Source: Parachlamydiales bacterium
Lineage (GTDB): Bacteria; Chlamydiota; Chlamydiia; Chlamydiales; Rhabdochlamydiaceae
Length of the DNA: 64,000 nt
Assembly (NCBI GenBank): GCA_963705295.1
Contig: OY970065.1
Location: 1,888,001-1,952,000 of the forward strand
Direction of reading: 5' to 3'
Shown: positions 15,451 to 62,614 of the stretch, in pieces
Numbering within the stretch: position 1 is the first letter of the stretch
How the letters are laid out: every line of letters starts with the position of its first letter
Notes under the pieces: model-generated
Told to the model about the DNA's origin: nothing
Seen by the model: only the letters and a program-made list of their open reading frames with translations
The model's database searches: none
Made by a program: the position numbers and the translations under genes

Positions 15451-15462
15451 TTAGGACTTTCG

Positions 15463-15510: not shown

Positions 15511-15560
15511 AGAGCGCTCGAGTTGAGTTCTATAAAAAATCATAAAAGAGAGTGTCCGCC

Positions 15561-18500: not shown

Positions 18501-18731
18501 AAAACTCCATCAGATGTACATGCTGGCGTGGATGCGTGGCTTGAAAACCACCTACTATCTCCGCTCCGTTGCTGCAACACAGATCGAGAAATCGACCACC
18601 GATATCAATAAACGGGGACTGCAGCCTCGCTGGATGAAAAGCAAATCAGCATCCAGCAATATCACAGTTGACCGGAAGTGAGCCCAAAAGCGTGCAAGCT
18701 AGGCGATGAAACCTGCGAAAGCTGTCAATAA
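15561..18731 (+). pseudogene. nrdA: Ribonucleoside-diphosphate reductase alpha subunit; interrupted as sequenced (+1 near 18036, TAG at 18286, -1 near 18675), possibly sequencing error
   Basis: Three ATP-cone-like starts (VVKRDG, VQRKDG, VTEDG), TPTLFNSG, SSCYL, SNLCTEI, CNLGS, APTATIS and TTYYLR. The C-terminal CKLGDETCESCQ ends at 18731 in a shifted frame. Confidence 0.9.
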
Positions 18732-18742: not shown

Positions 18743-19772
18743 ATGAAAGATACCAGTAAAACGGGTCCAAGTCGACCAAAAAAGACTGATCAATTGCAAC
18801 AAGGTCGATGTCAATCAACTCATGCCACTCAAATATAAATGGGCATGGGAGCACTATCTTAACGGGTGTGCCAACCACTGGATGCCGACTGAAGTACCGA
18901 TGGGAAAAGATATTGAAATCTGGAAATCGAATGGGCTCACTCCGGATGAAAGACAGGTCATCATGCGGAACCTTGGGTTTTTCAGCACTGCAGAGAGCTT
19001 GGTGGGCAATAACATCGTGCTGGCGATTTTTAAACATGTCACCAATCCCGAAGTGCGGCAGTACTTACTCCGTCAGTCGTTCGAAGAAGCGATCCATACT
19101 CACACGTTCCATTATATTGTAGAATCGCTCTCCCTTGATCAGGGTGAAGTGTTCAACATGTACAACGAGGTCAATACGATCCATGCGAAAGACCAGTTTG
19201 AGATGACCCTGACTGAAGACATTATGAAACCAGACTTTACAACCGATACGCACGAGGGAGCTCAAAAATTCTTAGAAAATCTGATCGGTTATTACATCAT
19301 CATGGAAGGGATTTTCTTCTATAGCGGCTTCGTCATGATCCTCTCATTCCACCGGCAAAACAAGATGACTGGTATTGGCGAGCAGTTCCAATACATCTTG
19401 AGAGATGAAACAGTCCACCTCAACTTTGGTATCGACCTCATCAATGGAATCAAAGAAGAAAATCCACAGCTTTGGACTCCCCAGTTCCAAAACCACATCA
19501 TCGATCTCATCAAACAAGCTGTCGAACTGGAATATCAATACGCACAAGACTGCCTTCCACGGGGCATTCTAGGACTGACCGCACCGATGTTCCGCGAATA
19601 TGTCCAATACATCGCCGATAGACGACTAGAAAGAATCGGACTCAAACCAATCTACAAGTCGAAAAATCCATTCCCCTGGATGAGCGAAACAATTGATCTC
19701 CAAAAAGAGAAAAACTTTTTCGAGACCCGAGTGAACGAATATCAATCAGCTGCGAATCTGACGTGGAATTGA
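18743..19772 (+). CDS. nrdB: Ribonucleoside-diphosphate reductase beta subunit, class Ic (R2c) type; +1 frameshift within the first codons as sequenced (ORF track starts at 18822)
   Basis: AAGGAG RBS before ATG 18743. The [27 protein letters not shown]-terminus is in the main frame. Motifs [31 protein letters not shown] and [10 protein letters not shown]. Confidence 0.93.
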
Positions 19773-19778: not shown

Positions 19779-20612
19779 TCACGATTTGGACATAATTTTT
19801 ATCTGCATCCGATTGGGCAATATGCATTTAAATGCTCTCATTAAATGAGCAAATAATGTAACTCGGTACCGGAATTTAGGACGTTTTGTCTCTAACGCAT
19901 GAATGATTTTTTTAACCACAGCCGTTGGCAATTGAATAAAAGGTAATTTTTCTCTCTCCTTTAAACTAGATTTAGTCGAGGCTAAAAATGAGTCATATTT
20001 ACTTTGATGGAGGCTCTTCTCTCGATTTGGAATCGTTGAAACGGACTTGCGCAATTCAGTTGCAATAAAGCCTGGCTGGATGAGGGAAACATGTAGATGA
20101 CTCCCATATAACTCCATGGCTAATGACTCAACAATTCCTTCAAGTGCAAATTTCGATGCACAATAGGCCCCTGCATAAGGAACTCCGATAAAACCATTGA
20201 TCGAACTGATAAATATAATTCTTCCTTCCTTTTGCTTGCGCATAATAGGAATTATTTTTTTCGTAAGATAAATGGTACCAAAGAAATTCGTCTCAAATTG
20301 TTCCTTGATCATCTCTAAAGGCAAGTCTTCTACCGCACCCATGACTAAGTATCCCGCATTATTTATTAGTGCATCTAAATGCCCTTCTGTTTTCTCTAAG
20401 ATGTTCTTTACAGCTTGATCCATACTGAACGTATCAGCTAGATCTAATCTCTCTACTTCAAATCCTAAAGTTTGTAGAAGTACTAGGTCTTCTGCTTTCC
20501 TCACAGTTGCAAATACCCGGTAACCTCGAGCTTTCAATTCTGTCGCCGCACAAAGGCCGATTCCCCGCGAAGCGCCGGTGATTAATACTGTTTTTTGCCT
20601 TGTAGAATGCAT
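19779..20612 (-). CDS. Short-chain dehydrogenase/reductase, last gene of the PKS/NRPS operon
   Basis: TGASRGIG, NNAG and YCASK motifs. An AGGAG RBS overlapping the NRPS stop supports ATG 20612. Confidence 0.9.
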   Translation of the reverse strand: MHSTRQKTVLITGASRGIGLCAATELKARGYRVFATVRKAEDLVLLQTLGFEVERLDLADTFSMDQAVKNILEKTEGHLDALINNAGYLVMGAVEDLPLEMIKEQFETNFFGTIYLTKKIIPIMRKQKEGRIIFISSINGFIGVPYAGAYCASKFALEGIVESLAMELYGSHLHVSLIQPGFIATELRKSVSTIPNREKSLHQSKYDSFLASTKSSLKEREKLPFIQLPTAVVKKIIHALETKRPKFRYRVTLFAHLMRAFKCILPNRMQIKIMSKS

Positions 20613-20620
20613 GATTTCTC

Positions 20621-23600
20621 CTATAATGAAATGGGTAAAAAATCCACTTTTTCCAAATATCGAATATATTTGCCTAATAATCGGGGTCCTATTTTTGGAT
20701 AACGAATTCCCAATTTTTTTAATTGTAATTGTGTCTTTGAACAATGAACTTGTCGATGAGCGGCATTGTCAAAACCATCGGCATAAAGTGAGGCTAAAGC
20801 AAATAAGGCATTCTCTTCAGTCAATGACGACAAATAGTCTTGATGCCACTGTTTTTCATCTATTAATTGGATGGGATATCCGTATCGAGTGAGTGCATCT
20901 ATCAAGGTATTCCAATCTGTCACTTGTGGATTATTCAGGTGGTACACCACCGGTAAATTTGATTGAAGAGAAAGCTGCACGACTGACTTGCTAACAATAT
21001 CGACAGGAGTCATTTCAATCGGCATATCTAACCGGGGGGCTACCCCAAATTGGATACAGCTTTTTAATAACAGGGTGACGTGATTGCCTTCATTGACAAT
21101 GCCTGTGGTTTGTTGCCCTTGTACTGTGCCCAGACGGTAAATGGAACCCTCCATCCCGCGGTCCAAAGCCTGCACCATTAATTGCTCTGCTACCCATTTA
21201 GATTGGATATAGCCTTGCTTAAAATGGGTTGGCAACACCTCGAAGGTCACGTTCTCATCCAATGAATTAGCAGCGCTGATGGTTGAGATAAAATGTAAAC
21301 GTTTATTTTTGATTTCAACAGCTAATTGAATCAATTCAACCATACTCACGACGTTGGTTGCTCTTAAACTCTCGTAATCATAGATGTGATGGACATAGGC
21401 ACCATTGTGATAGATCGTATCTATTTCTCGAGCCAACCACTCGAATTGTTGCTCTGGCAAACCCAATTTAGGTTTGCTTAAGTCTCCGACTAATATTTCG
21501 ACTCGATTTAAATCAACTTCATCGATCAGTTCATATTTTGTTAATTGCTGTACGAGCTTTGATCTAGCTCCACTTTCATCCTCGCCTCGAATTAAACAAA
21601 CAACATGAGCGTCGGTTGAATTCAGCAATTCTTTTAATAGATGGACTCCTACAAATCCTGTCACTCCGGTTAATAAAATGACCTTTGGAGAAAGAAGGGG
21701 TTTATTTTTAGCTGTAATCTTTATAGAGCGGGGCAACTGTGCATCGGCTTCAATACGATGGATGAGTTTATTAAAACTACCGTCGCCTGTTCCACTCAGG
21801 GCTATCATCCGGGCAATCGTTGGTTGTTCTATGAAATCTCGCACGGTATATTCTAACTTCAACTGTTTTTTCACATTCGCAAGCAGGCGCGTAATCAATA
21901 GGGAATGGCCTCCTAAATTGAAAAAATTGTCATTGATGCTGATCTTGGCTTCATCCACGCCCAGAAGAGATGCCCAGAGGGACGCCAGTTTTTTTTCAAG
22001 CTCTGTCTTTGGAGCTATAAATTGATTTTCCTGTTGCCGATAGAGTTTATCGGGCTTCGGTAGACTGTGACGATCGACCTTACCGCTCTGTGTCAAAGGG
22101 ATATTTTCCAAGAATACAAATACAAGGGGAATCATGTAATCAGGGAGGATCCGAGAAATATGGTCTCGTAAATGTACAATAAAATCTGCGGAGGCTTCCT
22201 CTTTAAGACGGGTTGATGTGACTAAGTAAGCGACTAGTTTTTTATCTCCTTCATCTTCCCGAGCGATGACGACACACTGTTTTACATCTGGATAGGAAAT
22301 GATCGCAGATTCAACCTCTCCTATTTCTATTCTAAAACCTCGGATCTTCACCTGATCATCCATACGACCTAGGTATTCAATATTCCCATCTTGTAAATAC
22401 CGGACGGTGTCGCCTGTACGATACAAGCGGAGGTTCTCTTCGCTGGAGGCAAAAGGATGCGGAATAAATCGGCCCGCTGTTAACTCAGGACGATTCAGAT
22501 AACCTCGAGCCAGTCCCACTCCTCCGATATACAACTCCCCTGAGACTCCTATAGGAACAGGCTGCAACAGTTTATCTAGGATATACAGCTGCATATTTGC
22601 GATCGGTTTACCAATAGGAACGGTGTGCAATGGACAATCTTGTTTACAATGCCAATAACTCACATCAATGGCAGCTTCCGTAGGTCCATACAAATTATGT
22701 AATTCTGCATTCAATCTATGATAGAATCGGTCTTGCAATACAGTAGACAATGCTTCCCCGCTCGCAAAAACCAGCCGCAAAGAATGACACGTCTCTACTT
22801 TCTCTCCTTCGAGAAAATTACTTAACATGGAGGGGACGAAATGGATCACACTAATTTTTTGTTGCTGAATAGACTCGATTAATGCCTCTGCATCTTTGTG
22901 AATATGAGGACGAGCGATAACTAAACATGCTCCAGTGATGAGAGGCCAGAAAAATTCCCATACCGAAACATCAAAACTAAAGGTTGTTTTTTGCAATACC
23001 CGATCCGTACGTTTTAATAGGTATTGTTCCTGCATCCATAGAATACGATTGACTAATCCCAGATGGGTATTCATTACACCTTTAGGCTTACCGGTAGATC
23101 CCGAAGTGTAGATCACATAAGCTAAATCAGAGGGGTGATTGACAAAAACTGGATTATCAAAACCGGTTTCATTATTAGCAAAACAGTCTTGAAATTTAGA
23201 GTGAGTAATTAACAAAAATGATTGACTATCTTGCAGCATAAATTGCAATCGATCTTCAGGATAGCTTGGATCTAGAGGCACATAAGCGCCGCCTGCTTTG
23301 AGAACACCCAAGATACTAATCACAAGTTCTAGACTTCGCTCTAAGCTAATTGCTACTAATGTATCTTGCTTCACACCTTGAGAGCGGAGATAGTGAGCTA
23401 ATTGATTCGCTTTTATGTTCAGTTCTGCATATGTCAATTCCTTCTCTTCGAACACGACTGCTACAAGATTAGGAGTTTTTTCCACTTGTTCTTCAAATAA
23501 CTGATGGATTGTCTTATCTCGTGGATAGTCTTTAAAAGTATCATTCCATTCAATGAGTTGCGTGCAGCGATCTGATTCTGTAAGTAAATTTAAGTCATCG

Positions 23601-56300: not shown

Positions 56301-59300
56301 TGGCAGCAGCGTAATCACACTGACCCTGGTTTGGAATAAGGGCAGCAATGGAAGAAAATAAGACAAAGAAATCGAGCGGCCATTCTTTTGATAGATCGTC
56401 GATATGGATAGCGCCGTACAATTTAGGTCCAATGACTTTGGCAAAAGATTCGTGTTTTTTACGTAAAATGAAAGAATCATCGATAGCACCAGCTCCATGA
56501 ATGATTCCATGCACATGTTTAAATTTTTTATGGATTGATCTGAAAACTTTTTTTAATTCTTTAAAATCAGTAACATCAGCAACAAAATACTCTGCCTGTC
56601 CTCCCTCTTGATTGATCTGAGAAAGTAAAGATAGAATAGAATCATTAACAGGTGTACGACCGATTAATATAATTGTCGCCTGATAATTTCTAGATAAATA
56701 AGTCGCAAAAAATGAACCTAATCCTCCTGCCCCACCGGTAATAATATAAACGCCCTTGTTTCTTATCAAACTCGATAGAGAACTAGATCGACTTTTGTCT
56801 TCACATCGCTTAATGACTCGAGCAAGACGGGTTTGATTCACATATCTCACTTCGGACAATACAGTATCCTTAGTATTCATCCATTCTTTGATCACTATTT
56901 CTGTATTAGAGGGATTATCTAATCCGATAGAGAGATAATTAAAGCGAGGATTTTCATACTTTAGAGTTCTTGCGAACCCAGCAACAATGCTATTAAGAGG
57001 ATTGTTGTTTTGAACGTATAGATATAAAAGTTTAACTTGGGACGAAAGTTTACTGGAAATCAACGCACGTGACAGATGCAACAAACTATAAACTCCATCT
57101 TCTAAGAACCGATCGACTCTTGACTTTTGGTTTAAAGCGATCATTTCAGTTATTAAATTCCAAGAATGAACCATGTGGGTAGGCGGGATACGATGCTGAG
57201 CCAGAAAAGAGAGTAATTTTTCATAACTACTTACCTCTTTCGGATTGATGCAAATGACAATAGTATCCGCAGTTTCGCTGAGAATTTTAAATTCAGAGGC
57301 AACCCGAACAGAGACAATTTTGATTTCAGGAGCAAATTGACGCAGCGAAGTTGAAACTTTCCCATCAAACTCAAAAAGAATGATCCACTCTATTTGAGAG
57401 GAAAGTTGACCAACGATCGATTGGGGCTCCCAAACAGAATGATAATAGAGGTTTTCAGACTGCAATACACGTTTGGCAAAAGACCGAATCTGAGCCATCA
57501 GATTTCCGTGCAGATCGTAAAATGACAGGTTAAATCGAACCATTCCATCCTTCTGAGGTTTTAACCTTTCTACATGGACATAAAAGCTAGAAGGTAATGG
57601 AGATAGTATATCGATTGTCTCAGCATAATAGGGTACTAGTTGTCCCAGTGTCTGTCCGATACCATAAATGGTGAATCCGACGACTGTCTGAAATGCACCA
57701 TCAATAATAGCTGTGTACATTCCCGGTTTATTTTTCAGTTCATCCCCAATTCTTAATTCCGCAAATGCTTCATTTTCATTACAATAAAACCGCTCAATTA
57801 CTCTTAACGAAGGGCCATAGGCCAAACCATAAGAACTAAACGACTGGTAAAGCTCCGTTTTAGATATCTCTCGAGAACATCTCGAAAGGATTTGGTTTAA
57901 ATCTGTATGAATGGGTGAATCTAATACTGGGTTGGGCTCGCTGAAGATTCCCTGAGAATGTACAATTCCTTCACTTTGAATAATGAAGTTTTTCTCTTCA
58001 TTCGAAGATCTAATTTGTATTGTGAGATCCGTTTTAGGTCGGATAGGAACCAACCAAAACACATCTTTAAACTGAATTCTTTTACCAACTGCAATACTTT
58101 TTGATAAAACAAGTTCCAAATGCGCTGCTCCAGGCATCATTGAATGCGCTTGGACAACATGTTCACGAATAAAAAAATCGTCTTCGTTTATCACAAGATT
58201 TACTTGATCTGTAGACTCTTTTGGAGAGGGAAGGGATTGTATTAAATCCCTTTGTAGAGCAGGTCTTTTTAAATTTTCTGCCCAACAACTCTTCTTTGAA
58301 AAAGGATAGCCCGGCAATGGCAAACGTTGAAGTTTGGTTTTCCCATACAATCCGACCCAATCAATAATGACTCCCGAAGTCCATGCTTTTGCAAGCTTTA
58401 ACCAATCCCGGTGTTTCCATATATGTTCAATATCAACATCTTTGTTTGCGACAGTTTGCTTTACAATATTATAAAAATACTCAGATTGATTTTTTTGATT
58501 TAAGAAACAATCCAATTTGTTCTTTAATTCAGAAATGGATTTGACAATAAAACAAACACGTTCTTCGTATTCATTTCTTCCAACTTGTAAAGTATAAGCC
58601 AGGTTACTTAACTCACAATTATCAATATTAATTAATTTACCTGAATCATTAAGATAGTTAAATAAACTTTGAGCATAGGGTTGTAAGCGACCTTCTCTAG
58701 CAGAAAGAAGAATTAAGTGATCCCCTGAGATATTTTCATTCTGGACTTTGATAATAGGAGATTCTTCTAATAGAACATGAGCATTCACACCGCCCATACC
58801 AAAGGCGCTGATACCAGCTCTCCTTGGAACAGCTTTATTATTCAATATTACTGGTGACCATACCTTTCTATCAGTAACGATATAAAATTGACTGTTATTC
58901 AATTCAATATGAGGGTTGATTTGCTCAAAATGTAATAAACCTGGCAGTTGTTTATGTTGCATTGATAGTAAGACTTTAATCATGCCCGCGATACCAGATG
59001 CGCTTTCTAGATGTCCAATATTGGTCTTTACTGAACCTAAACCACAATATTGAGTGAGGGGAGCATTTAAATTTGAAAATGCTTTTTTTAGACCATTTAT
59101 TTCGATAGGATCTCCGAGAGATGTACCCGTACCATGTGCCTCGATGTAGGTGATTGTCTCTGGATGTATATCTGCCTGCTTGATCGCAGATTCCACAACT
59201 TTCGCTTGCGCGTTCGCATTGGGTGCTGTGAGAAAATTTGATTTACCACCGTGATTGATAGCAGAGCCTATCAGCACACCGTGAATGTGATCTCCATCTA

Positions 59301-60096
59301 TTCTCGCTTTTTCCAAGGGCTTGAGAACGAAAACTCCCACCCCTTCACTTCGAACATATCCATTAGCTTTCCGATCAAATGTCTTACATTTTCCGTCGAG
59401 TGCTAACATTCCTGATTTGCTATGAGAAATAAACATTGTGGGAGCTAGCAAAGCATTCACCCCTCCGACAATGGCCAATTCACAATCTCCATGATTGATA
59501 TCCCGGATAGCGTGATGTAGAGCAACTAATGAACTCGAACAGGCCGTATCTATAGCTTCACTGGGTCCATGGAAATTTAATAAGAAAGAAACACGGTTTG
59601 CTAAAATAGAATGGACTGTTCCAGTGGAAATAAATGAAGTAATTTCCTCATCTTTTGCTCGCATGAGTTCAGAATAATCATTTTTCGACACACCGACATA
59701 TACACCCACTTTTTTCCCTGATAAATTCTGAGTGCTATATCCAGAATCTTCAATTGCATGCCAGACCTCTTCTAAAAAGATCCGATGTTGCGGGTCAATA
59801 TATGCAGCTTCTTTAGGAGAAAGATTAAAAAATAATGGATCAAACTTATCGATATTTTGAATAAAACCACCCCATTTGATGTTGGTTTTATTCGATTGGC
59901 TCTGAGGATCGCCTTCAAATTCTTTCCAATCCCAACGATCTGAAGGCACTTCTGAAACACTATTAGTCCCATGAATAAGGTTGTGCCAATATTGTTGATA
60001 ATTCTCTGCACCAGGAAAGCGACACGCCATGCCAATAATGGCTATGTCTTGAGAATCCGCTCTTCTTTTTTCTTTTTTCCGAAAAAATCGTTTCAT
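32323..60096 (-). CDS. Giant trans-AT PKS, ~9,260 aa: KS1-DH-KR-ACP-DH*-ACP / KS2-DH-KR-ACP / KS3-DH-ACP / KS4-DH-KR-ACP / KS5-DH-KR-ACP / KS6-DH-ACP / KS7-KR-ACP-dock
   Basis: Seven DT(A/M)CSSS + HGTGT + NxGHLE KS motifs, each followed by the AT-less flanking region ending LPxYPF. Five KR GGxGGxG motifs and eight ACP GxDS/GINS motifs. The stop overlaps the next start (TAATG). The ORF track start is 60138; ATG 60096 has a GGGGA RBS. Confidence 0.95.
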   Translation of the reverse strand: MKRFFRKKEKRRADSQDIAIIGMACRFPGAENYQQYWHNLIHGTNSVSEVPSDRWDWKEFEGDPQSQSNKTNIKWGGFIQNIDKFDPLFFNLSPKEAAYIDPQHRIFLEEVWHAIEDSGYSTQNLSGKKVGVYVGVSKNDYSELMRAKDEEITSFISTGTVHSILANRVSFLLNFHGPSEAIDTACSSSLVALHHAIRDINHGDCELAIVGGVNALLAPTMFISHSKSGMLALDGKCKTFDRKANGYVRSEGVGVFVLKPLEKARIDGDHIHGVLIGSAINHGGKSNFLTAPNANAQAKVVESAIKQADIHPETITYIEAHGTGTSLGDPIEINGLKKAFSNLNAPLTQYCGLGSVKTNIGHLESASGIAGMIKVLLSMQHKQLPGLLHFEQINPHIELNNSQFYIVTDRKVWSPVILNNKAVPRRAGISAFGMGGVNAHVLLEESPIIKVQNENISGDHLILLSAREGRLQPYAQSLFNYLNDSGKLINIDNCELSNLAYTLQVGRNEYEERVCFIVKSISELKNKLDCFLNQKNQSEYFYNIVKQTVANKDVDIEHIWKHRDWLKLAKAWTSGVIIDWVGLYGKTKLQRLPLPGYPFSKKSCWAENLKRPALQRDLIQSLPSPKESTDQVNLVINEDDFFIREHVVQAHSMMPGAAHLELVLSKSIAVGKRIQFKDVFWLVPIRPKTDLTIQIRSSNEEKNFIIQSEGIVHSQGIFSEPNPVLDSPIHTDLNQILSRCSREISKTELYQSFSSYGLAYGPSLRVIERFYCNENEAFAELRIGDELKNKPGMYTAIIDGAFQTVVGFTIYGIGQTLGQLVPYYAETIDILSPLPSSFYVHVERLKPQKDGMVRFNLSFYDLHGNLMAQIRSFAKRVLQSENLYYHSVWEPQSIVGQLSSQIEWIILFEFDGKVSTSLRQFAPEIKIVSVRVASEFKILSETADTIVICINPKEVSSYEKLLSFLAQHRIPPTHMVHSWNLITEMIALNQKSRVDRFLEDGVYSLLHLSRALISSKLSSQVKLLYLYVQNNNPLNSIVAGFARTLKYENPRFNYLSIGLDNPSNTEIVIKEWMNTKDTVLSEVRYVNQTRLARVIKRCEDKSRSSSLSSLIRNKGVYIITGGAGGLGSFFATYLSRNYQATIILIGRTPVNDSILSLLSQINQEGGQAEYFVADVTDFKELKKVFRSIHKKFKHVHGIIHGAGAIDDSFILRKKHESFAKVIGPKLYGAIHIDDLSKEWPLDFFVLFSSIAALIPNQGQCDYAAANSFLDEFSAYRNKLVSLKERTGITLSINWPLWREGGMSVTVEEETHLFENFGMKALEKELGMQVFEEGLLMARDHSFHQLIAINGDQHKIDRQFGISRLSSKIRTQVPLKEFEENIVKILAKEFNCEESALDRKKYISDFGLDSLISLKLVSVIKDRYKIYVKPTVFFEGSTIEELIQSLLVLYQDQILSDSASIQSSLIDVMDSSQGSDRFEKTFDCSEFYMVDHIVNGKYNVPGACYIEMARQAAMLSGPHKQIKKLMNNYWAKQLSSEGDKFTAYTQLVHEKDKTRYEISSIDTQGNKVIHAIGDVIFETNVQSSLSAERLDLAAIRQRCNTIQYPKEIYRQIISEGLHVGPTFMPMQEIALNKHEALATLVLPKEISDGADEYFLHPSLLTGVFQTALISNRFTCNCDGLHYIPIAIDELEIYQPLTSSCYVYSQVVPTTNDKFLKKFNLIVCNKEGDLLIKLNAFAIKGLKEESLQVSSEIGDDQRHPVATSSSAVAEQYLKEILSKAIQLQPDEMDSYAAFEKYGINSIMVMQLNSLLEEKFGRLSKTLFFEYSNIAELAQYFTTHHSKRLLELVEVSPTHPSEIKPISNIQQDIAIIGLSGRYPKAKNLSEFWDNLQNGLDCITEIPPDRFDYLNYFDGDRESGKIYSKWGGFIDGIDQFDPLFFNISPREAALLDPQERLFLQASWEVLEDAGYTAETIRKKSNKVGVFVGALWQPYVNIGVEETLKGNTVAPSGLLYSIANRVSYFFGFQGPSLVVDTACSSSLTALHMACMSLKQGESHYAIAGGVNLSLHSSKYLFLSQNQFLSTEGHCRSFGAGGDGYVPGEGVGVVLLKPLSAALEDGDRIYGVIKSSAVNHGGRTHGYTVPSPNAQRDLITEAIQQAGINPRTISYMEAHGTGTALGDPIEVTGLSQAFGQHTKDKQFCSIGSVKSNVGHLEAAAGICGLTKVLLQMKHKKLVPSLHSEQKNSNIDFDQTPFYVQGELSDWTSATKRLAAISSFGAGGSNAHMIIEEGPDPFLTSLHKPKPYYLLAISAKNVDSLKERIRDLEHYLLRYPDLPIDAIAYTLNYGRVHFEHRCTFVVPSKEDLLTALQSNQYHISSAPIKKRDSIFEERMERLESEEYRKKCLSLAELYIQGYELDWNHLHRDESRQRISLPTYPFQKESYWIPKATNKIALSGQGLLHPLVGWNASSFKEQCFKTVFNGNEFYLADHIVRGEKILPGVAYIEMARAAGEFSMPGRQVTHVSNLVWLQPLVMKQETMEVAIYLDESTFKIISLGPDGSEIVHCEGELKYGERIQPISQINVEEKIARLNSHMTSDTVYDRFNQAGLSLGQGFRTLAWIKSDERESVGYFRLPEESKADRGKYFLHPGLLDGILQSTEGLHVVTGRETTGRLHVPFSIETVAIYSTLPDEGYVLAAESKPGSGRYHLQVVDNSGSVCMEINGFCVRPLAIELSYYRPSWEDPVSTNKNQRSSIKTVCIFSDDVSFVHAFRSELKESTVIQFRKDEIGDYQRMIQDLQKRGLQPNCFIFGQSEETTPSYIDTTLFEIVRLLQALMREKVSGDVDLMIPYNVKGTRVEPATMLIGLAKSLQYEYPHYYLRVMGVDHSSQIIHELKESREHHVCYQNGQRKVARFTQLAHEESVNTDPFRQNGVYLITGGLGGLGRILAEYLAKTYQARLILTGRSALTPDKQIKSAGGEIIYLQGDVTDQETVEKWVSTAKARFGSLQGIIHSAGIVEDRLLLQKDWKSFKSVILPKVLGAVYLDRATQHENLDCFIMFSSLASCLGNIGQADYASANAFIDHFASWREGEHQQGRRHGKSLAINWPYWLEGGMQMDPLTQQALKAEWGLEGMPTALGIEALKVCLTQKKSAQCLVVYGKRRLFEQTQDPSPDLKNTSTEKNNERVKQELILAVGDILNLPLPRIEVNKNLSDYGFDSITFTRLANRLKQQYGFSVTPALFFEYPTIEAFSVYLSQTYTHPLLSHYSMPKDMPVKEVKGQGNDNAIAIIGLAGKFPGSEDLASFWDHLEAQEDLITEVPTDRFDGGKYEIPKWGGFISDIDKFDAEFFSISPREAELMDPQQRQFLQIVWQAIENSGYTPQQLSKYKTGLFVGVSSHDYGDLLQQEDAIEAYTSTGMMFSILANRVSYLLNLTGPSEAVDTACSSSLVALHRAVRAIQDGDCDAAIVGGVNALLTPTLFRTFAQAGMLSPDGRCKTFDQAANGYVRGEGVGAVVLKPLSQALADGDHIWGVIRGIAVNHGGHVNTLTAPNPTAQAQLIVDAYEQADIHPETVTYIEAHGTGTSLGDPIEINGLKKAFRTLADKKGIKLTNHQCGIGSVKGNIGHLEAAAGIAGLIKVLLMLEYKLIPGQVHFKTQNPYIELEESPFYIVAETQKWISSTVRRAGVSSFGFGGANAHVLLEEGPEYILSTRQTKPYYLLTISAKHPESLKQRIKDLATHLDRHPDLPLEAVAYTLNTGRTHFEYRFALVVSSIEELQAALKTAQPETHQILKKEPIFEELLERILDEISSKQFEQPSYRKKLLVLADFYTKGYEIDWKALHQGQAHQRVSLPTYPFQRERYWVPARRQTASVQLHPLVGSNVSTLHEQCFKTVLTGDEFYLADHVVAGQKVLPGVVYLEMARAAGDLALPEKKVTGFRDVVWAKPLVVDKREVEVNIRLESQEGQVQYAIYTRSEGEEVLHGQGALVYEPTNVLSAWSTLSELEIRPLQQQYKKEEIYSHIAARGLQLGKHLQSLEWVKTDGEEVLAYYSLPSSFTNQEPYDLHPSILDGALQAAIAFLDHQQALPFALGSLRFHTLPESEGTIHCKRVSSSTPRLSIQIRDKQGNVNVELENLEARSGGKVDPETIFQTAIAEGDHVLEKIRQDLILIAAGVLKLSTKTIDVLKNLSSYGFDSISFTQLANRLKQRYGFPVTPALFFEYPTIEAFAVYLSKTYSNPLLSHYSMPKELPTQRFMPVKEQGKENAIAIIGLAGKFPGSEDLASFWDHLKAQEDLINEIPSDRFDGGKYEIPKWGGFISDIDKFDAEFFSISPREAELMDPQQRLFLQVVWQAIENAGYTPQQLSEHKTGLFVGVSAQDYFELLCETDNVEAHTTTGFAHSILANRVSYLLNLTGPSEAVDTACSSSLVALHRAVRAIQDGDCDAAIVGGVNALLTPTLFRTFAQAGMLSPDGRCKTFDQAANGYVRGEGVGAVVLKPLSQALADGDHIWGVIRGIAVNHGGHVNTLTAPNPTAQAQLIVDAYEQADIHPETVTYIEAHGTGTSLGDPIEINGLKKAFRTLADKKGIKLTNHQCGIGSVKGNIGHLEAAAGIAGLIKVLLMLEYKLIPGQVHFETQNPYIELEESPFYIVAETQKWISSTVRRAGVSSFGFGGANAHVLLEEGPEYTVSTRQTKPYYLLTISAKHPESLKQRIKDLATHLDRHPDLPLEAIAYTLNTGRTHFEYRFACVASSIQELQAGLNNAQPEAGLESDSNRKKLWALADLYLQGHEIDWKTLHQGEAHQRVSLPTYPFLKERYWVSSRRQTASVKLHPLIGSNVSTLDEQCFKTVLTGGEFYLTDHIVAGQKVLPGVVYLEMARAAGDLALPEKKVTGFRDVVWAKPLVVDKREVEVNIRLESQEGQVQYVVYTEKGIHGQGSLVYDEPHQLNAWSTVSELEKKLALHLTKEEIYLHFAKIGLNYGKTFQALQWMKTGVDEGLGFYSLPTEKEEYDLHPAILDAALQSSITLDIASQNLLLPFVLEKLKIYRKPESTGYIHVRRNASYVALQILDREGRVCVELENLEAHSVTKGAELAYYTPQWKERRIGEIENTIHSVCVVGRDAAFVSELRKDLPNHPILHLEEKEDFAQFIQSVQKNNIKLSHFILLNESHLDAAAYIDTQVRPITGLLQNLMLANIDEDLHFVVPYESASTRLELGMMLTGLAKSLFRENPHYHMHVVGYSSITQLVDELKYAREFHIRYVRGERLVEHYVKETPPQNPGDLPLRSKRVYLITGGLGGLGLIFAEYLAKTYQARLILTGRSPLTPEKQKQIESLGGEVLYLQGDVTDRKTVEKWISTGKAHFGSLHGIIHCAGITEDRLLLQKNWESFRSVLLPKVWGTIHLDAATAEENLECFVVFSSLASRLGNRGQTDYATGNAFLDAFAHFRAEQVKKGERRGRTISMNWPLWAEGGMGRSETTIQALKALGMEPLPTDLGIKAFTDCLSRSMMAESLIIYGDPSPISSLLEEQETPQPSSLQHDLLPKIIHYLKEKITTLLKFPLERMKEDTPFERYGLDSMMIVNFTRHLEEEMGKLPKTLFFEYQSIKALAEYFMQNHRDVFHQKFGTNRKSNLEFRDMKTKFSNEKPSSEIGLNEAIAVIGMSGRYPQAENTEQLWELLKAGKDCITEIPLERWDPNKADGKSYGKWGGFIADHDKFDPLFFNISPHEAETTDPQERLFLQVTWQALEDAGYTPERLSRENDSAVGVFVGVMYGSYQLYGAEVNPSYASIANRVSYYLNLQGPSLAVDTMCSSSLTALHLACKSLQRGECRVALAGGVNISSHPNKYLFLSQGQFLSSDGKCRSFGEGGDGYVPGEGVGAVLLKPLSQALNDGDRIYGVIRGSSVNHGGFSNGYTVPSPNAQAKVIIEAFKDAGVVPESISYLETHGTGTSLGDPIEIRGLSKAFGNGVPFQSCPIGSIKSNVGHLESAAGIVALTKVLLQLKHKQLVPSIHSETLNPYIEFSQTPFYVQQEVTQWQHKSGIPRRAGISSFGAGGSNAHLIVEEGPEYILSTRQTKPYYLLTISAKHPESLKQRIKDLAIYLDRHSDLPLEAVAYTLNVGRAHFEYRFALVVSSIEELQAALKTAQPKAEQTEKREPIFEEILERVLEDFSTKQLESVTYRKKLLVLADLYTKGYEIDWKILHQGEGHQQISLPTYPFLKERYWVSTREQMTSVKLHPLIGSNVSTLNEQCFRTVLTGDEFYLADHIIAGQKVLPGVVYLEMARAAGDLAWPGKKVTGFRDIVWAKPLVVDKEVEVHIRLELHEEQILYVVYTKEEIHGQGTLVYDESNDLSAWSNVSELEKELVQHFTKEEIYHDFAKMGLCYGKTFQVLDWGRTAREQVLAHYSLPSGIAETEKYGLHPSIIDGALHASGIDILSGLALPFSLEKVKINRKPDSTGYIHVRRKTSHVDLQILDKDGHVCVELENLEARSNTKVAELAYYTPQWKPAPLKEKERTIHSLCVVGRDSALVSELRKLLPDHRVLHLDEKEDYALFIQSMRKDNIKLSHFILANESDAPAYIDTQIHSLTVLLQSLMEAKVDGDLHFVVPYPYESSKLEPGIMVTGLAKSLAQENPRYRMHVVGYNSFTQLVDELKYAQEFHVRYVGDERQVEHYVKETTPPILGDLPLRPKGVYLITGGLGGLGLIFAEYLAKTYQARLILTGRSALKPEKLKQIESHGGEALYLQGDVTDEETVKKWISAAKAHFGSLHGIIHSAGIVEDRLLFQKDWSSFRSVLLPKVWGTIHLDAATAQENLEFFVVFSSLASCFGNVGQTDYATGNAFLDAFAHFRSEQVKKGKRRGRTLSMNWPLWAEGGMGSNEATEEYLIQQWGLLSLPSEMGIRAFLENLSLHSPQSLVFYGYQDQIARSTFEAPVEEDRVKTGGMNEDLLLEKTVQYLKEKIAGTLKLPIERLQEDVPFERYGLDSVRIVALTRRLEEEMGNLPKTLFFEYQSVRALAGYLVRGHQGKLEDKLKITQLIERDGPAKIRTGLGSVEKRIRDEGIAIIGLSGRYPMANNLDEFWENLKSGKDCVTEIPQDRWDGNAQYDPSKGTSGKSYGKWGGFIADHDKFDPLFFNISPREAEILDPQERLFLEVAWQTLEDAGYTPERLNLGDSQAAKRAVGVFVGVMYGPYQLFGAEENIALSSSFSSIANRVSYYLNLHGPSLAVDTMCSSSLTALHLACMSLRSGECETALAGGVNIASHSNKYLLLSQGRFLSTDGKCRSFGEGGDGYVPGEGVGAVLLKPLDRALEDGDRIYGVIRGSSVNHGGFSNGYTVPNPNAQASLIDTALKQGHILPESISYVETHGTGTTLGDPIEIRGLSKAFGEGIPLQSCSIGSVKSNVGHLESAAGIVALTKVLLQLKYKQLMPSIHCENLNSYIEFDQTPFYVQREMAEWKPKPGYPRRAGISSFGAGGSNAHIIVEEGPAYILSTEPSKPYYLLTLSAKHPDSLKQRIKDLYTYLNKHADDPLGAIAYTLNVGRSHFHYRCALVVSSKEELQNKLEDLLAQKNPPGCFQGNAGQVSEDSIQQLKQIDLRETTKETLEMLANLYVRGCEVDWKTLHLNEPEQRISLPGYPFLKERYWVPAAESRPAAPLHPLIDTNESTFKDQIFKKTFTSADLNLADHIVLGQSILPGTAYLEMAKIAGSIAAGKSVTRLKHVMWIQPIVSDGSSIEVWIQLSPHENQQSADFQIYTKKNSNVIVHVEGQVDYSPARESLESLSVKDIESRSDFLGDKFTIYPKLEALGFAYGPSFQVMSTLYGNEREGLAKLSLPSVCIDDFAAYSLHPSLLDGGLRSSFGIRQSLDQVGQLAIPFYLEELIFYKQIPEESYAYATLSDYSQGEEVRYNDITLVDLLGQVCVKLRGFSVRPFASSNKPILNQTSLEASSIMQNYLKNLLAAAAKLPIERIDIHQPLEVYGIDSVMIVTLNQRLTQDFPDLRKTLLFEYRTLEGLAAYLVQHYPEHLEKLLGKGQIKSSGDNAPSIAIVKSKVQSRSDAVAIIGLSGRYAEANNLVKFWENLKNGRDCVTEIPAHRWNWRSFYSPEKNIPHKSSSKWGSFLADVDKFDPLFFNILPREAVMMDPQERLMLEMVWEAYESGGYDPSSFKRLKKGRVGVFVGMMWNEYQLLQKEYAGQELIFGNSNNASLANRISYHFDFSGPSLVIDTACSSSLMAVHMACESIRQGDCQYALAGGVNLSLHPSKYVNMSQLGLLSTEGKCRSFGDGGDGYVPGEGVGVVLLKPLQQAVADGDQIYGIIRSSHTNHGGKTNGYTVPNPDAHAELIQGALEKGEIPAESISYVEAHGTGTSLGDPIEITGLCKAFGEKIVHQSCSIGSVKSNVGHLEGAAGIVALTKVVLQLKNRQLVPSIHSEILNRNIAFHKTPFYVQQGLTEWKPRLEYPRRAGISSFGAGGSNVHLIVEEGPEYILSTEQNKPYYLLTLSAKHSDSLQQRIEDLLEHLDAHPDLCLETIAYTLNTGRTHFEYRCAFVVKNKADLREKLSQAMKQLKHEFPGYFYGDTSHLPENRVDHQKALGALREVELESLATLYVKGYNLDWDVLHQGEAHQKVNLPTYPFLKERYWLEDKSALKKEDLLLYQPQWVPVDLHEEEGKEIDTLIVFGKEGLSQDALRSLAHRVILVCPGRCYEQIGKDTYTLRVNQASDYQQFLQHLVHQGIPIRHVLHLWNRTEELTWPDVNEKLKTSLEEGLFSCLALFQAFDAVEDRVKGVSCLFAFASHTSNHQPQHEAIAGFASAIKILKPNWRLNMVQMDELELISSQGLKSLVKELKAQVSREIKYWNKQRFIRQLQPFEMPYDREPKTLLKPRGTYLITGGLGGIGLLFAEYLADQYQARLVLMGRSPLDKGRKQFLANLVAKGGEVLYVQGDVSQSEDIVNLLKVSKARFGDLDGILHAAGVVDRVPYTQADQERFSAILAPKLEGTRHLDELTKDHPLDFFVVFSSISAEVGDYGAGSYAVGNRFMDSYMALRQQFVNEGRRHGISLSINWPYWEKGGLRLSEEEAAVYFGYSGMKALTTEQGLQIFTQLLCRAIATSTTQVFVAVGEKSRVERVLGVVSLKPSITPPPAQGDHELVQETERYLKEVISKVTHLPIDRIESKKALEEYGMDSIAIININRELGKDFTSLRKTLLFEYRNLEGLARYLVKEQRTALEKVLYGVSVTSTNPSSDHNDSVPFQEMIESELDLLFEKLTGEKG
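45350..50470 (-). repeat. Tandem duplication of an ACP-KS-flank-DH(N-half) unit (about 48210-50470 and 45350-47540)
   Basis: KS3 and KS4 DNA is near-identical at offset 2934 (offset 2862 in the DH part, after a 72-nt indel). Identical antisense ORFs at 46444 and 49378. Confidence 0.92.
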
Positions 60097-60146
60097 ACAC
60101 TTTGTCCCCAGTCTTTTAATTTCGAGAACCTTTAGCATTTGATATA

Positions 60147-60175
60147 AATTTATACTTTCTTAAATATATTGTCAA
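60147..60175 (-). promoter_or_regulatory. Sigma70-type promoter directly upstream of the giant PKS gene
   Basis: Minus-strand TTGACA (60175-60170)-N17-TAAATT (60152-60147). Confidence 0.6.
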
Positions 60176-60252
60176 AAACTGATCACATTCGCCTGCGAAA
60201 AGAGCCTTTTGGGTGTGTTTTGTATCAAAAAGATTTTTATTTGATCAAAGAT

Positions 60253-60277
60253 TTATTAGCCCGAGGGGTCAAAAGGT
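60253..60277 (+). repeat. 25-nt repeat copy A, overlapping the TEII stop
   Basis: TTATTAGCCCGAGGGGTCAAAAGGT; 24/25 identical to 61517-61541. Confidence 0.8.
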
Positions 60278-61012
60278 GACAAGATGCTGTGGTATGATTT
60301 TCTGACACAATTCTTGTGACAATTTCTGAAGATAAAAATGATCACCAGGGAAAAGCTGCAGCGTAAAAGAGGCTTTCGTGTATTTCTCCCAAGCCTGCAA
60401 ATTTTTTAAACCGACAAGATAATCTTCATTCCCGCCGAAAACCACAATCGGTGCATTTACAGAAAAAGGAGCTCGATTGAGATATGTTTCAAAAAGAGTA
60501 AAGTCGGCCCTTAAACGCGGGAGAAAAACATCCATAGCTTCTATGTCTTGAAGTAGCTGTTCTGGCATCCCACCATATTTTCTCAAATGGTGAATAAATC
60601 GATCGTTTGGTAATTGATGGAACATCTGTCTGGTATCTATATTATCAGGAGCAGAAGCAGCTGAAATAAATAATCTTAGGAGTGAAATTTTATTCTCACA
60701 TTCAACCTTTTTTGCAAGTTCATAAGCGATAAGACCTCCTAGACTATGTCCAAAAAAAGCAAAAGGGCAATCTAGGACACCTGAAATATGGAACCACATC
60801 TTATCAATGAGCTCGTCCATATTCGTAATAAAAGGCTCCATAAAACGGTTCTCCCGCCCAGGCAGCTGAACAGGACATACTTCTATATGGCTGGGGAAAA
60901 AAGATTGCCAATTCCGAAAACTAGACGCCCCTCCTCCCGCGTGAGAAAAGCAAAATAAACGGAGTTTGACTGGGGAAGTAAAAGTATTATAAGGGAACCA
61001 AGCTGTTGTCAT
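60269..61012 (-). CDS. Type II (editing) thioesterase
   Basis: LFCFSHAGGGAS, VQLPGRENR, GHSLG, LRADF and PGDHFY. An ATGA overlap with the PPTase stop supports start 61012. Confidence 0.92.
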   Translation of the reverse strand: MTTAWFPYNTFTSPVKLRLFCFSHAGGGASSFRNWQSFFPSHIEVCPVQLPGRENRFMEPFITNMDELIDKMWFHISGVLDCPFAFFGHSLGGLIAYELAKKVECENKISLLRLFISAASAPDNIDTRQMFHQLPNDRFIHHLRKYGGMPEQLLQDIEAMDVFLPRLRADFTLFETYLNRAPFSVNAPIVVFGGNEDYLVGLKNLQAWEKYTKASFTLQLFPGDHFYLQKLSQELCQKIIPQHLVTF

Positions 61013-61776
61013 ACGAATTTCTGCTGGATTTGTAAAACATCCAAATCTATTTTCGTTTTTTTTGGATAAACAATAGAACAAATTGCATTGTTGATTTCAA
61101 ATGAAATAGCCTGATATTGAAAAAAATTCTTGAAGTAAATGAATGTAAATTCACGCTGAGGGATTATTTCATTTATTTCTAGTAAATCCAAAGGAATTGT
61201 AAAACCGCATTTTAAAACTTTAGACAATGCTTCTTTTGCAGTCCAAAGCAGAGTTAAAAACTTTATTTCGCTGTGAGAAAATAAAGAAGCAAATTTCAGT
61301 TCAGTGGCTGTTATTTCTTCTTTGATTGCAGTAAGATTCTCTGCGCAAATGGTCTCTACATCAATTGCCATTGGATGGGCTTCAGGAAAAACCAAAGCTG
61401 CGCCTAATTTATCTGTATGGCTGATACTGACTTGGATGTTATTGCAGCTATCATGGTAAACAATGGGTTGCTGGAAAACACCACCTTCAATGAGGATATT
61501 GGAAAGCATATCGTTGTTATTAACCCGAGGGGTCAAAAGGTAAGTTGCAATTGCCTGTTTTGCACAATAACGTCCTAACAAGTAGCTTTCTTGCCTTTTG
61601 GCATGAGTGAGATTCGCTAAGAATTTTTTTTCTTTTGGATGCAAGAAAAGATCGATCCTTGCATGTAATTCATCAAAATTAGCCCTACTCAGACAAAACC
61701 CTCCCTTCCACAACGCCTCTTCATGTTGCAAATTGATGGGCATTCTGTAAGTCGATATCAGAGAATCATTGTCCAT
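61009..61776 (-). CDS. 4'-phosphopantetheinyl transferase
   Basis: SYLLGRYCAKQA, VSISHT, MAIDVE and LWTAKEALSK motifs. Confidence 0.9.
   Translation of the reverse strand: MDNDSLISTYRMPINLQHEEALWKGGFCLSRANFDELHARIDLFLHPKEKKFLANLTHAKRQESYLLGRYCAKQAIATYLLTPRVNNNDMLSNILIEGGVFQQPIVYHDSCNNIQVSISHTDKLGAALVFPEAHPMAIDVETICAENLTAIKEEITATELKFASLFSHSEIKFLTLLWTAKEALSKVLKCGFTIPLDLLEINEIIPQREFTFIYFKNFFQYQAISFEINNAICSIVYPKKTKIDLDVLQIQQKFV
61517..61541 (+). repeat. 25-nt repeat copy B, inside the PPTase CDS
   Basis: TTATTAACCCGAGGGGTCAAAAGGT. Confidence 0.8.
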
Positions 61777-62614
61777 TTTTGATGCGGTTCAATAAACCAG
61801 TGAGGACAACGCCAGGTCCTAGTTCTTCAAATTCGGTTTCTTTTTGATCCATGAGAAAATGAATGGTTTCCACCCAACGGACAGGATTCACCATTTGTTG
61901 TGCAAGATTTTGACGAATATTTCCCATTTGATACGGTCTAGCAGTCGTATTTGCAATCACAGATATGCTAGGTGAAGAAAAATGAAAATCTTTCAGAAAA
62001 ATTTCAAATTCTTCTTGAGCAGAATGCATGTAAGGAGAGTGGAAGGCTCCACTTGTCCTTAATGGGACTACTAATAAAGCTCCCGCTTGCTCTAAAATTA
62101 TTTGAGCCTTTCCGATATCTCCTGATTTTCCCGAAATAACAATTTGCAAGTTTGTATTATAATTTGCTATGGCGACATCCAGCAAAGTGTGTTGCCTTAG
62201 AGCAGCTCTTATGGCTTCCTCTTTAAGTCCCACAATAGCTGCCATACCCCCCTCAACAGCTTGCCCCATTAATTCTCCTCGCTTTTTAACCAACCTTAAT
62301 CCAGTTTCAAAATCGAAAATACCCGCGGCCAGCAACGCATTGTATTCCCCTAAACTGTGCCCTGCTACAAAAGAAGGCATTTTTCCGCTTTCTGCAATTT
62401 TTTTATAATACGACAACGCATTCACTACATACAATGCAGGTTGCGTATATTGAGTTTGGTTCAGACGCTGCTCGGGATCTTCTATGCAAAGAGTTTCTAC
62501 TGAATACCCTAAAATGGCCTTTGCTTTTGCCATGATGTCAGGAAACTGGGGAAACAACTCTTTTCCCATACCTTTTATTTGTGAACCTTGTCCTGGAAAG
62601 AGATAAGTTGGCAT
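61766..62614 (-). CDS. Standalone trans-acting malonyl-CoA:ACP acyltransferase (PksC/FabD-like)
   Basis: YLFPGQGSQ, TQYTQPALY, GHSLGEY, GAFHS (malonyl-type), PVRW and ELGPG. AGAGG RBS before ATG 62614. Confidence 0.93.
   Translation of the reverse strand: MPTYLFPGQGSQIKGMGKELFPQFPDIMAKAKAILGYSVETLCIEDPEQRLNQTQYTQPALYVVNALSYYKKIAESGKMPSFVAGHSLGEYNALLAAGIFDFETGLRLVKKRGELMGQAVEGGMAAIVGLKEEAIRAALRQHTLLDVAIANYNTNLQIVISGKSGDIGKAQIILEQAGALLVVPLRTSGAFHSPYMHSAQEEFEIFLKDFHFSSPSISVIANTTARPYQMGNIRQNLAQQMVNPVRWVETIHFLMDQKETEFEELGPGVVLTGLLNRIKNGQ

Follow-up and report, generated by a model that had tools for sequence, protein, structure and literature searches.

How a large biosynthetic assembly line came to stand in the chromosome of a chlamydia-like bacterium, whether it is likely to work there, and what it would make are questions raised by a 64,000-nt stretch of contig OY970065.1 (assembly GCA_963705295.1, positions 1888001 to 1952000), which is called the window here. 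The host genome is a single closed contig of 2,131,910 bp, with 43.8% GC and an estimated completeness of 94.7%. Six co-oriented genes on the minus strand, between positions 19779 and 62614 of the window, were annotated as encoding an acyltransferase (AT), a phosphopantetheinyl transferase (PPTase), a type II thioesterase (TEII), a polyketide synthase (PKS) with seven ketosynthase (KS) domains, a hybrid that joins one KS to two nonribosomal peptide synthetase (NRPS) modules and a terminal thioester reductase (R), and a short-chain dehydrogenase/reductase (SDR) (Table 1). All six open reading frames (ORFs) were intact, and the gene set and its orientation agreed with an earlier reading made from the sequence alone (the sequence-only reading). 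We consider it probable that these genes form an intact trans-AT PKS/NRPS operon in a chlamydial chromosome, most likely acquired horizontally within an insertion of about 71 kb, and that they act by the mechanism proposed below.

Judged by domain content, the cluster is a trans-AT PKS/NRPS assembly line, as the sequence-only reading had proposed, because its megasynthases lack AT domains and a separate, stand-alone AT is encoded in the cluster. The AT family PF00698 had no match at E ≤ 1e-5 in either megasynthase, whether scanned whole or in tiles. Only remnants of the linker between KS and AT domains (PF16197, PF22621, and PF22336) were found, after seven of the eight KS domains, with that for KS1 seen in the tile scan alone. 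The gene for the free AT points the same way as the PKS gene and lies 1.6 kb upstream of it, and motifs of KS domains and acyl carrier proteins (ACPs) are present in the megasynthases. Compared to the NCBIfam FabD equivalog, the AT scored 352 bits and passed the cut-off of 260.9. The cluster AT is an extra copy, since a separate housekeeping FabD, 37% identical to it and with an adjacent FabG-like gene, is encoded elsewhere in the genome (positions 1741023 to 1742526). No paralogue of the PPTase was found elsewhere in the host genome by tblastn. Two genes for carboxyltransferase subunits of acetyl-CoA carboxylase, which bear on substrate supply, were present in the host genome.

The genes of the cluster are closely packed, and the earlier statement that they are mostly translationally coupled was borne out. 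Based on likely start codons (for the AT, the ATG named in the sequence-only reading), the AT and PPTase genes share 11 nt, the PPTase and TEII genes share 4 nt (ATGA), and the PKS and hybrid genes share 1 nt (TAATG), with a spacer of 8 nt containing AGGAG between the hybrid and SDR genes. The gap 5' of the PKS gene contains a promoter-like sequence (TTGACA-17-TAAATT, positions 60175 to 60147, minus strand). Such sites numbered 9 in the scanned region, compared to a shuffle mean of 8.1, so that the signal is weak. A terminator-like hairpin (positions 62677 to 62658) lies between the AT gene and the next ORF upstream, ORF274. No regulator, transporter, or integrase was found between positions 19779 and 62704, in line with the sequence-only reading. 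The description of the assembly line as self-contained held for the gene set, which is present, but not for chain initiation, as neither a loading module nor a starter-activating enzyme was found.

Pfam scans of the megasynthases were made in overlapping tiles of 450 aa (31 for the PKS and 13 for the hybrid). No AT, methyltransferase (MT), enoylreductase (ER), enoyl-CoA hydratase or HMG-CoA synthase (ECH/HMGS), epimerization (E), heterocyclization (Cy), or thioesterase (TE) domain was found in the tiled scan of either protein, which reproduced the reported absence of MT, ER, beta-branching, and loading functions. The longest unannotated stretches, of about 200 aa, fall at the expected structural subdomains of ketoreductases (KRs), and none is long enough to hide a missing domain. 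In the KS alignment, the Cys/His/His triad (DTACSSS or DTMCSSS, HGTGT, and N(I/V/L)GH) was kept in all eight domains, as first described. The phosphopantetheine Ser was kept in nine of nine ACPs and two of two peptidyl carrier proteins (PCPs), with NS instead of DS in ACP1b. The Asp of DxxxQ/H was present in seven of the eight dehydratase (DH) domains and is replaced by Thr in DH1b. Both HxxxGxxxxP and DxxxQ are intact in DH3, Ala replaces the Gly of HxxxGxxxxP in DH1a, and DH6 reads DxxxR. An Asp at the "LDD" position was found in five KRs and was missing from KR7, a difference that we take to separate B-type from A-type KRs.

Two features had been overlooked by the sequence-only reading, namely, an extra, aberrant DH-ACP pair in module 1 and the upstream ORF274. 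The motifs of the dehydratase-like domain of that pair, DH1b, read HIVNGKYNVP, with the Pro kept, and TGVFQ, with the Gln kept and the Asp lost. Two candidate identities for DH1b did not fit its motifs. In the available part of PMC11672594, enoyl-isomerase domains have Leu/Val for the Pro of HxxxxxxxxP and Val/Leu for the Gln/His of DxxxQ/H, a signature that is missing from DH1b, where Pro and Gln are retained. Pyran synthase domains, according to the available part of PMC5772238, typically have a deletion in HxxxGxxxxP. The motif of DH1b is full length, which is a weak test, since the same source names some pyran synthase domains without the deletion.

The hybrid continues with two NRPS elongation modules, each with condensation (C), adenylation (A), and PCP domains in order and both with HHxxxD in the C domain, and it ends in an R domain with the Rossmann motif TGxxGxxG and YxxxK. 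Residues of the A-domain codes were anchored on the A4 (FD...), "GE," and A5 (NxYGPTE) motifs, with the anchors set by motif rather than by a reference alignment; fixed-offset numbering to PDB chain 1AMU gave a nonsense result and was dropped. Each of the two codes differs at one position from what we take to be the reference codes for proline (DVQ[L/F]IAHVVK) and serine (DVWHFSLVDK, from EntF), and A1 and A2 are predicted to activate proline and serine, respectively. Of the solved chains whose match covered one adenylation domain, Tyrocidine synthase 2 (residues 468 to 998; 474 bits) scored highest against A1. Its first module is presumably proline activating, and this match gives some independent backing to proline.

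A biosynthetic route can be proposed from these domains. The Sfp-type PPTase would convert the nine ACPs and two PCPs to their holo forms, and the one stand-alone AT would load malonyl on every ACP; it is read as malonyl specific because it passed the FabD equivalog and carries the GHSLG and GAFHS motifs. No MT was found, and an unbranched chain is therefore expected. The eight KS domains, presumed competent from their motifs, would each extend the chain once, for eight malonyl extensions. Modules 1, 2, 4, 5, and 8, with a DH and a B-type-like KR, would introduce trans double bonds, and module 7, with a KR only, would leave a hydroxyl. In modules 3 and 6 (KS-DH-ACP), the keto group may be retained, or it may be reduced in trans, perhaps by the SDR, to give further double bonds. 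The acyl chain would then be condensed with proline and serine, as the codes suggest. The R domain would free a peptidyl aldehyde, which R itself or the SDR may reduce onward to an alcohol, and the TEII would remove misprimed units from the carriers. The predicted product is an unbranched, polyunsaturated acyl chain with one hydroxyl, amide linked to Pro-Ser and terminating in an aldehyde or alcohol.

The label "polyene" depends on trans reduction of modules 3 and 6, which have no KR. In trans-AT systems, the sequence of a KS generally follows the substrate that it receives. Identity is 93% between KS3 and KS4 and 70% between KS7 and KS8. If KS follows substrate here, the likeness of KS3 and KS4 implies that module 3 delivers an enoyl product like that of module 2, and the likeness of KS7 and KS8 implies that module 6 delivers a hydroxy product like that of module 7. 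Modules 3 and 6 would then need ketoreduction in trans, for which the SDR would be the obvious candidate. Against this reading, the high KS identities may mirror no more than recent internal duplication. It is also possible, if rather unlikely, that the line works but that its product is no simple polyene, with modules 3 and 6 left unreduced and DH1b or spontaneous chemistry leading to a cyclized or keto-enol structure (a pyrone, pyran, or hemiketal). Such an outcome would suit the lack of a KR domain in modules 3 and 6, the DxxxR of DH6 in place of DxxxQ/H, the lost Asp of DH1b, and the character of the SDR, a generic classical SDR without family-level assignment, for which all NCBIfam matches fell under their cut-offs. 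It is harder to reconcile with the near identity of KS4, which takes the module 3 product, to KS3, which takes a fully dehydrated product, and with the intact motifs of DH3, a domain that would have no substrate unless reduction occurs.

By the relationships among its domains, the assembly line is a mosaic of internal duplications. Three in-cluster pairs (KS3/4, KS5/6, and KS7/8) were supported in a KS tree, the taxa of which were picked by likeness to KS5 and are thus a biased sample. DH5 and DH8 were 91% identical. DNA of module 8 in the hybrid gene (positions 29414 to 29818) was 98 to 100% identical to DNA of module 5 in the PKS gene (positions 40405 to 40809), 10,991 nt apart, including 198 nt that were 100% identical (positions 29621 to 29818 versus 40612 to 40809). 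This likeness indicates that parts of the operon were recently duplicated or underwent gene conversion with one another. Ratios of nonsynonymous to synonymous substitution rates (dN/dS) were 0.08 to 0.30 in seven of seven paralogous domain pairs, which points to purifying selection since the duplications, though not necessarily within the present host. There were zero stops across 9271 and 3900 codons of the PKS and hybrid genes, respectively.

These values also bear on whether the cluster is only a relic of an earlier transfer, silent or in decay, and makes no product in this host. We consider a relic improbable: the 39.5 kb of megasynthase frame is unbroken, the checked catalytic motifs are intact, dN/dS among the internal paralogues is low, translational coupling joins the genes, and the cluster retains a PPTase of its own. 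Consistent with a relic, in turn, are the failure to find a starter-loading function, regulator, or exporter and the broken state of the neighboring gene for the large subunit of ribonucleotide reductase (RNR-alpha), which is evidence of gene decay at the locus.

Judging from the kinship of its flanking genes, its TLC genes, and its 16S rRNA variant, the host is a Rhabdochlamydiaceae bacterium of the phylum Chlamydiota, which fits the earlier description of a chlamydia-like genome. The small subunit of ribonucleotide reductase (RNR-beta), encoded beside the cluster, was 88 to 92% identical to proteins named as Rhabdochlamydiaceae, Rhabdochlamydia, and "Chlamydiae bacterium"; its named relatives also included one metagenome-assembled genome (MAG) labeled Verrucomicrobia and one labeled Anaplasmataceae. 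Five TLC nucleotide-transporter matches were found in the host genome, compared to none in 14 control genomes. The sole 16S rRNA gene carries GCTGCGGTAATAC, a variant that we take to be a chlamydial signature, and the universal GCCGCGGTAATAC is absent. The Pfam families Hc1 and Chlam_OMP6 had no match in the host genome; OMP6 matched nothing anywhere, controls included, and Hc1 is short and biased, so that neither result was counted against a chlamydial host. Candidate pan-Chlamydiales primer and probe sequences had no exact match in the 16S rRNA gene, where only a short core variant matched. A second NRPS was observed outside the window (genome positions 546943 to 551019), with two condensation-domain matches in an open frame of 3085 aa.

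The cluster is the left end of an insertion of about 71 kb (genome positions 1907770 to 1979128) between the RNR-beta and M16 peptidase genes. In six of six congeners, RNR-alpha and RNR-beta were followed within 1 to 5 kb by M16 peptidase and YitT-family genes, and in the host genome the M16 and YitT genes lie at positions 1979129 to 1983391, 71.4 kb from RNR-beta. RNR-beta was matched in 17 of 18 congeners, at 84 to 94% identity over its full length in 13 and partially in the remainder. The cluster AT had no match at E ≤ 1e-60 in 128 other genomes of the family, and the DH family of the PKS was found in none of 13 sampled congeners and in 1 of 89 genomes of the family. The synonymous codon-usage distance of the cluster was 3.30, compared to a mean of 1.06 (standard deviation, 0.26; maximum, 2.06) for 236 size-matched control sets of contiguous genes. 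GC content at third codon positions was 37.8% in the cluster versus 43.0%, and its tetranucleotide distance was surpassed by none of 209 windows. Since the cluster is absent from relatives at a conserved site and deviates in codon and tetranucleotide usage, it was most likely acquired by a fairly recent horizontal transfer into a variable site.

The remaining 28 kb or so of the insertion contains ORF274 and genes for eukaryote-like repeat proteins, the latter at genome positions 1951568 to 1979316. Codon usage is genome-like over the remaining 27 kb, with a distance of 1.66, inside the range of the control gene sets. Genes for tRNA-Val and tRNA-Asp lie after the M16 gene. ORF274 had no Pfam or NCBIfam match, was found in none of 18 congeners, and had no usable ESM Atlas match; an exhaustive HMMER search of 1.84 billion representatives returned one weak, repeat-like match, and the AlphaFold model, with a predicted local distance difference test (pLDDT) score of 38.8, was unusable.

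It is highly improbable that the cluster is foreign DNA fused to a chlamydial chromosome through faulty assembly or binning. In favor of such an error, no other part of the genome is as extreme in codon usage and tetranucleotides, the cluster was shared by no other genome of the family, and its left junction is very tight, with convergent stops 6 nt apart. Against it, the genome is one contig; genes typical of the lineage flank the cluster within that contig (RNR-beta on the left and, on the right, Sel1, TPR, and ankyrin genes followed by syntenic M16 and YitT genes); codon usage in the remainder of the insertion is genome-like; and related parts occur in other chlamydial genomes (in G095, an AT at 64% and a KS at 73% identity). 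The sequence-only reading had named a chimeric assembly and non-chlamydial flanks as grounds for abandoning its proposal, and the contig proved to be closed and the flanks native to the lineage.

Several points nevertheless weigh against an intact operon that was acquired horizontally and acts as proposed. The PKS starts directly with a KS, and neither a loading module nor an enzyme to activate a starter was found in the cluster or next to it. The colinear prediction is uncertain at three places, namely, modules 3 and 6, which have a DH without a KR, and DH1b, which has no catalytic Asp. The predicted A-domain specificities depend on motif anchors, not a reference alignment. At the insertion edges, no integrase or transposase, tRNA, or direct repeat was found, and the deviant composition could stem in part from the repetitive, unusual amino acid content of the PKS, though the codon test was synonymous only.

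Other regions near the insertion or resembling it in composition were also observed. The region around genome positions 1,380,000 to 1,440,000 was the second most deviant in tetranucleotide usage, behind only the cluster. RNR-alpha (positions 15552 to 18681, plus strand), the sole gene for an RNR large subunit, is disrupted by a frame switch near positions 18013 to 18050 and an in-frame TAG near position 18287; its congener counterpart is one ORF of about 1063 to 1080 aa. Sequencing error seems unlikely as a cause, because the adjacent 39.5-kb PKS frame is intact. To the left of the RNR genes, positions 350 to 15500 seem variable between congeners and contain ORFs without a Pfam match as well as ORFs for an alpha/beta hydrolase, a GNAT protein, a DUF6531 protein, a P-type ATPase, a GMC oxidoreductase, and a Sel1 protein. 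This region may be linked to the cluster, although the conserved RNR genes intervene.

Comparison to other Chlamydiota revealed a modular-PKS DH domain in 18 of 401 sampled genomes, including the host genome. Five genomes (G037, G095, G096, G127, and G271), from four families, encode AT-less megasynthases with multiple KS domains beside stand-alone ATs of 281 to 326 aa. Orthology of these clusters with the one described here was rejected, as identities over the KS1 region were 35 to 51% and the architectures differ. The uniqueness implied by the sequence-only reading was therefore weakened, in that at least five other chlamydial genomes hold AT-less PKSs with stand-alone ATs. When the N-terminal 1000 aa of the PKS were searched against one genome for each species, no relative was found. 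No close full-length match was found, as that reading had anticipated, and the best was the chlamydial genome G095, with an AT at 63 to 64% and a KS at 73% identity.

For individual domains, relatives were found in many phyla. A profile from the alignment of the eight KS domains was searched against genome contigs, and among the best 80 of 697 matching stretches, the top KS matches reached 65% identity and were spread over Gracilibacillus, a Legionella MAG, Paenibacillus, Aquimarina, and Pinirhizobacter, with a KS from a Chlamydiia MAG at 63%. In five genomes with such KS domains, no terminal module with a reductase like the one here was found. In the KS tree, KS5 and KS6 formed a four-member clade with a KS of G095 and one of Neptuniibacter (SH-aLRT, 98), and the other KS domains of the cluster showed no chlamydial affinity. 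Relatives of the AT at 66 to 80% identity were found in public assemblies (P0242 to P0246 and P0248, with P0242 to P0246 at 72 to 80%), in two cases on contigs as long as 1.55 and 2.28 Mb, and these may mark related clusters. Named relatives of the AT, at 59 to 61%, were from Legionella and gammaproteobacterial MAGs. The hybrid protein was the only member of its 90% cluster. A homologue search with a 1001-aa region of the hybrid gave a ranking dominated by multimodule NRPSs, which was little informative.

Table 1. Features of the assembly line, its surroundings, and related chlamydial loci. Positions refer to the window unless a genome or contig is named.
Feature	Position	Strand	Size, domains, or evidence
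Stand-alone (trans) AT, predicted malonyl specific	61766-62614	-	282 aa; PF00698; FabD equivalog; motifs GHSLG, GAFHS
Sfp-type 4'-phosphopantetheinyl transferase	61009-61776	-	255 aa; PF01648, PF17837
Type II (editing) thioesterase	60269-61012	-	247 aa; PF00975 (E 9e-49); GHSLGG
Intergenic region 5' of PKS	60139-60268	-	130 nt; sole real gap in operon
AT-less PKS	32323-60138	-	9271 aa; 7 KS in 7 modules; Pfam tiles and domain alignments
PKS module 1, KS-DH-KR-ACP-DH*-ACP (DH*, aberrant DH1b)	54598-60051	-	
DH1b, aberrant dehydratase-like domain without own KS, followed by second ACP	54871-55689	-	DH alignment
PKS module 2, KS-DH-KR-ACP	50359-54507	-	
PKS module 3, KS-DH-ACP	47428-50262	-	
PKS module 4, KS-DH-KR-ACP	43294-47328	-	
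PKS module 5, KS-DH-KR-ACP	39073-43167	-	
PKS module 6, KS-DH-ACP	36085-38955	-	
PKS module 7, KS-KR-ACP	32482-35970	-	
PKS/NRPS hybrid	20621-32323	-	3900 aa; KS-DH-KR-ACP-C-A-PCP-C-A-PCP-R
Hybrid PKS module 8, KS-DH-KR-ACP	28088-32242	-	Pfam tiles
NRPS module C-A-PCP, predicted proline	24932-28000	-	Pfam tiles; HHIITD; code DVQFIAQVVK
NRPS module C-A-PCP, predicted serine	21800-24868	-	Pfam tiles; HHIISD; code DVWHFSLIDK
Terminal thioester reductase (R)	20624-21673	-	PF07993 (E 1e-58); TGVTGFVG, YIQSK (YxxxK)
Classical SDR, candidate aldehyde reductase or trans-acting ketoreductase	19779-20612	-	277 aa; PF00106 (E 8e-48); TGASRGIG, YCASK
RNR small subunit (RNR-beta), native left border	18822-19772	+	Convergent with SDR; stop codons 6 nt apart
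Orphan ORF274, directly upstream of AT, in same insertion	62697-63521	-	274 aa; predicted N-terminal hydrophobic membrane helix
TPR and DUF294 nucleotidyltransferase proteins	Insertion remainder		1436, 1042, and 382 aa
TPR protein	Insertion remainder		970 aa
Ankyrin and RasGEF protein	Insertion remainder		1709 aa
Sel1 protein	Insertion remainder		>2400 aa
PP2C-like protein	Insertion remainder		
DAO-family oxidoreductase	Insertion remainder		
AT-less PKS locus in G037	C17:1-60000		
AT-less PKS locus in G095	C138:24000-72000		
AT-less PKS loci in G127	C5, C178		
AT-less PKS loci in G271	C405, C203, C125		
AT-less PKS locus in G096	C22		

Among chlamydial loci, contig C138 of G095, a genome of the same order and a different family, has an AT gene followed directly by one for an Sfp-type PPTase, in the order found here, with identities to the cluster of 63 to 64% for the AT, 45% for the PPTase, 73% (KS6) and 70% (KS5) for one KS, and 57% for one KR. 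It differs in the number and order of modules, in internal NRPS modules, in a second AT-like gene, and in the absence of a terminal-reductase match in 60 kb, and it is not orthologous. In the palmerolide gene cluster of "Candidatus Synoicihabitans palmerolidicus" (Verrucomicrobiota, in the same PVC superphylum), a trans-AT PKS/NRPS likewise occurs in a host-associated bacterium. Two palmerolide KS domains, to which the comparison is limited, were 56 and 59% identical to KS5, no closer than KS domains of Bacillota, Pseudomonadota, and Bacteroidota (up to 65%), among the same best 80 stretches.

Named pathways share parts of the architecture. Bacillaene synthase (pksX/bae) of Bacillus subtilis and B. 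velezensis is, as generally described, also a trans-AT PKS/NRPS that makes a linear polyene with amide bonds, with some DH-like domains that are likewise aberrant and some modules that are split or odd. B. subtilis was the sole match of the PKS DH family among the 14 control genomes. Bacillaene biosynthesis uses an adenylation-type loading module, an HMG-CoA synthase beta-branching cassette, and internal amino acids. In the cluster, unlike in that pathway, no beta-branching cassette was found, the amino acids are terminal, and release would be reductive. A bacillaene-type pathway was rejected because neither the HMG-CoA synthase/ECH cassette nor the adenylation-type loading module was found in or beside the cluster. 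Myxalamid-type polyene amides resemble the predicted product by description, with a polyunsaturated chain ending in C-A-PCP-R and reductive release. Myxalamids are made by a cis-AT PKS from methylmalonyl units and a single alanine and end in an amino alcohol, whereas the cluster is trans-AT and is predicted to use malonyl only and Pro-Ser. Among full-coverage relatives, those closest to the terminal A-PCP-R region were Nostoc NRPSs ending in A-PCP-R, including NcpB of nostocyclopeptide biosynthesis (40 to 43% identity and 98 to 100% coverage). Nostocyclopeptide synthetase releases an aldehyde. The NcpB-type enzymes are pure NRPSs without a PKS, and about 42% identity makes them kin at the family level only.

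We know of no natural product characterized from Chlamydiota, and no paper describing or discussing a trans-AT PKS in chlamydiae was found in the literature searched. Biosynthetic gene clusters (BGCs) are widespread in Chlamydiae and are mainly NRPS-like, RiPP-like, and T3PKS, according to the available portion of Dharamshi et al. 2022 (PMC9666466), where, in 11 of the 12 supplementary files, "transAT-PKS" is given only for one Parachlamydiaceae MAG (Data S10). In the accessible parts of two further sources, five small BGCs are given for a hydra symbiont (PMC13229535), and an octocoral Rhabdochlamydiaceae MAG is given without a BGC (PMC9502895). The enzyme class and its logic are well known; what draws attention is the host, an obligate intracellular lineage with no natural product known to us, and the recurrence of similar assembly lines across chlamydial families.

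In the organism described here, 2% of a 2.13-Mb obligate intracellular genome is devoted to one intact assembly line. Genome-reduced defensive symbionts likewise devote DNA to such assembly lines. The locus offers a concrete, testable case in which a chlamydial symbiont may use chemistry for defense or to manipulate its host, a role that is conjecture. The case comprises a closed genome, a defined operon, and a predicted Pro-Ser reductive terminus, for which mass spectrometry could be used to look. It is doubtful, though conceivable, that the product is a lipophilic polyenoyl-prolyl-serinal that acts inside the host cell, manipulating or protecting the host, and that the cluster was drawn from a pool of trans-AT parts of amoeba-associated intracellular bacteria. 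If this were true, the compound would be a peptide aldehyde of the protease- or proteasome-inhibiting kind and the first polyketide natural product from Chlamydiota, and the AT-PPTase cassette and KS modules would have been swapped between bacteria of this type, chlamydiae and Legionella among them. Beyond this genome, AT-less PKSs recur over several chlamydial families.

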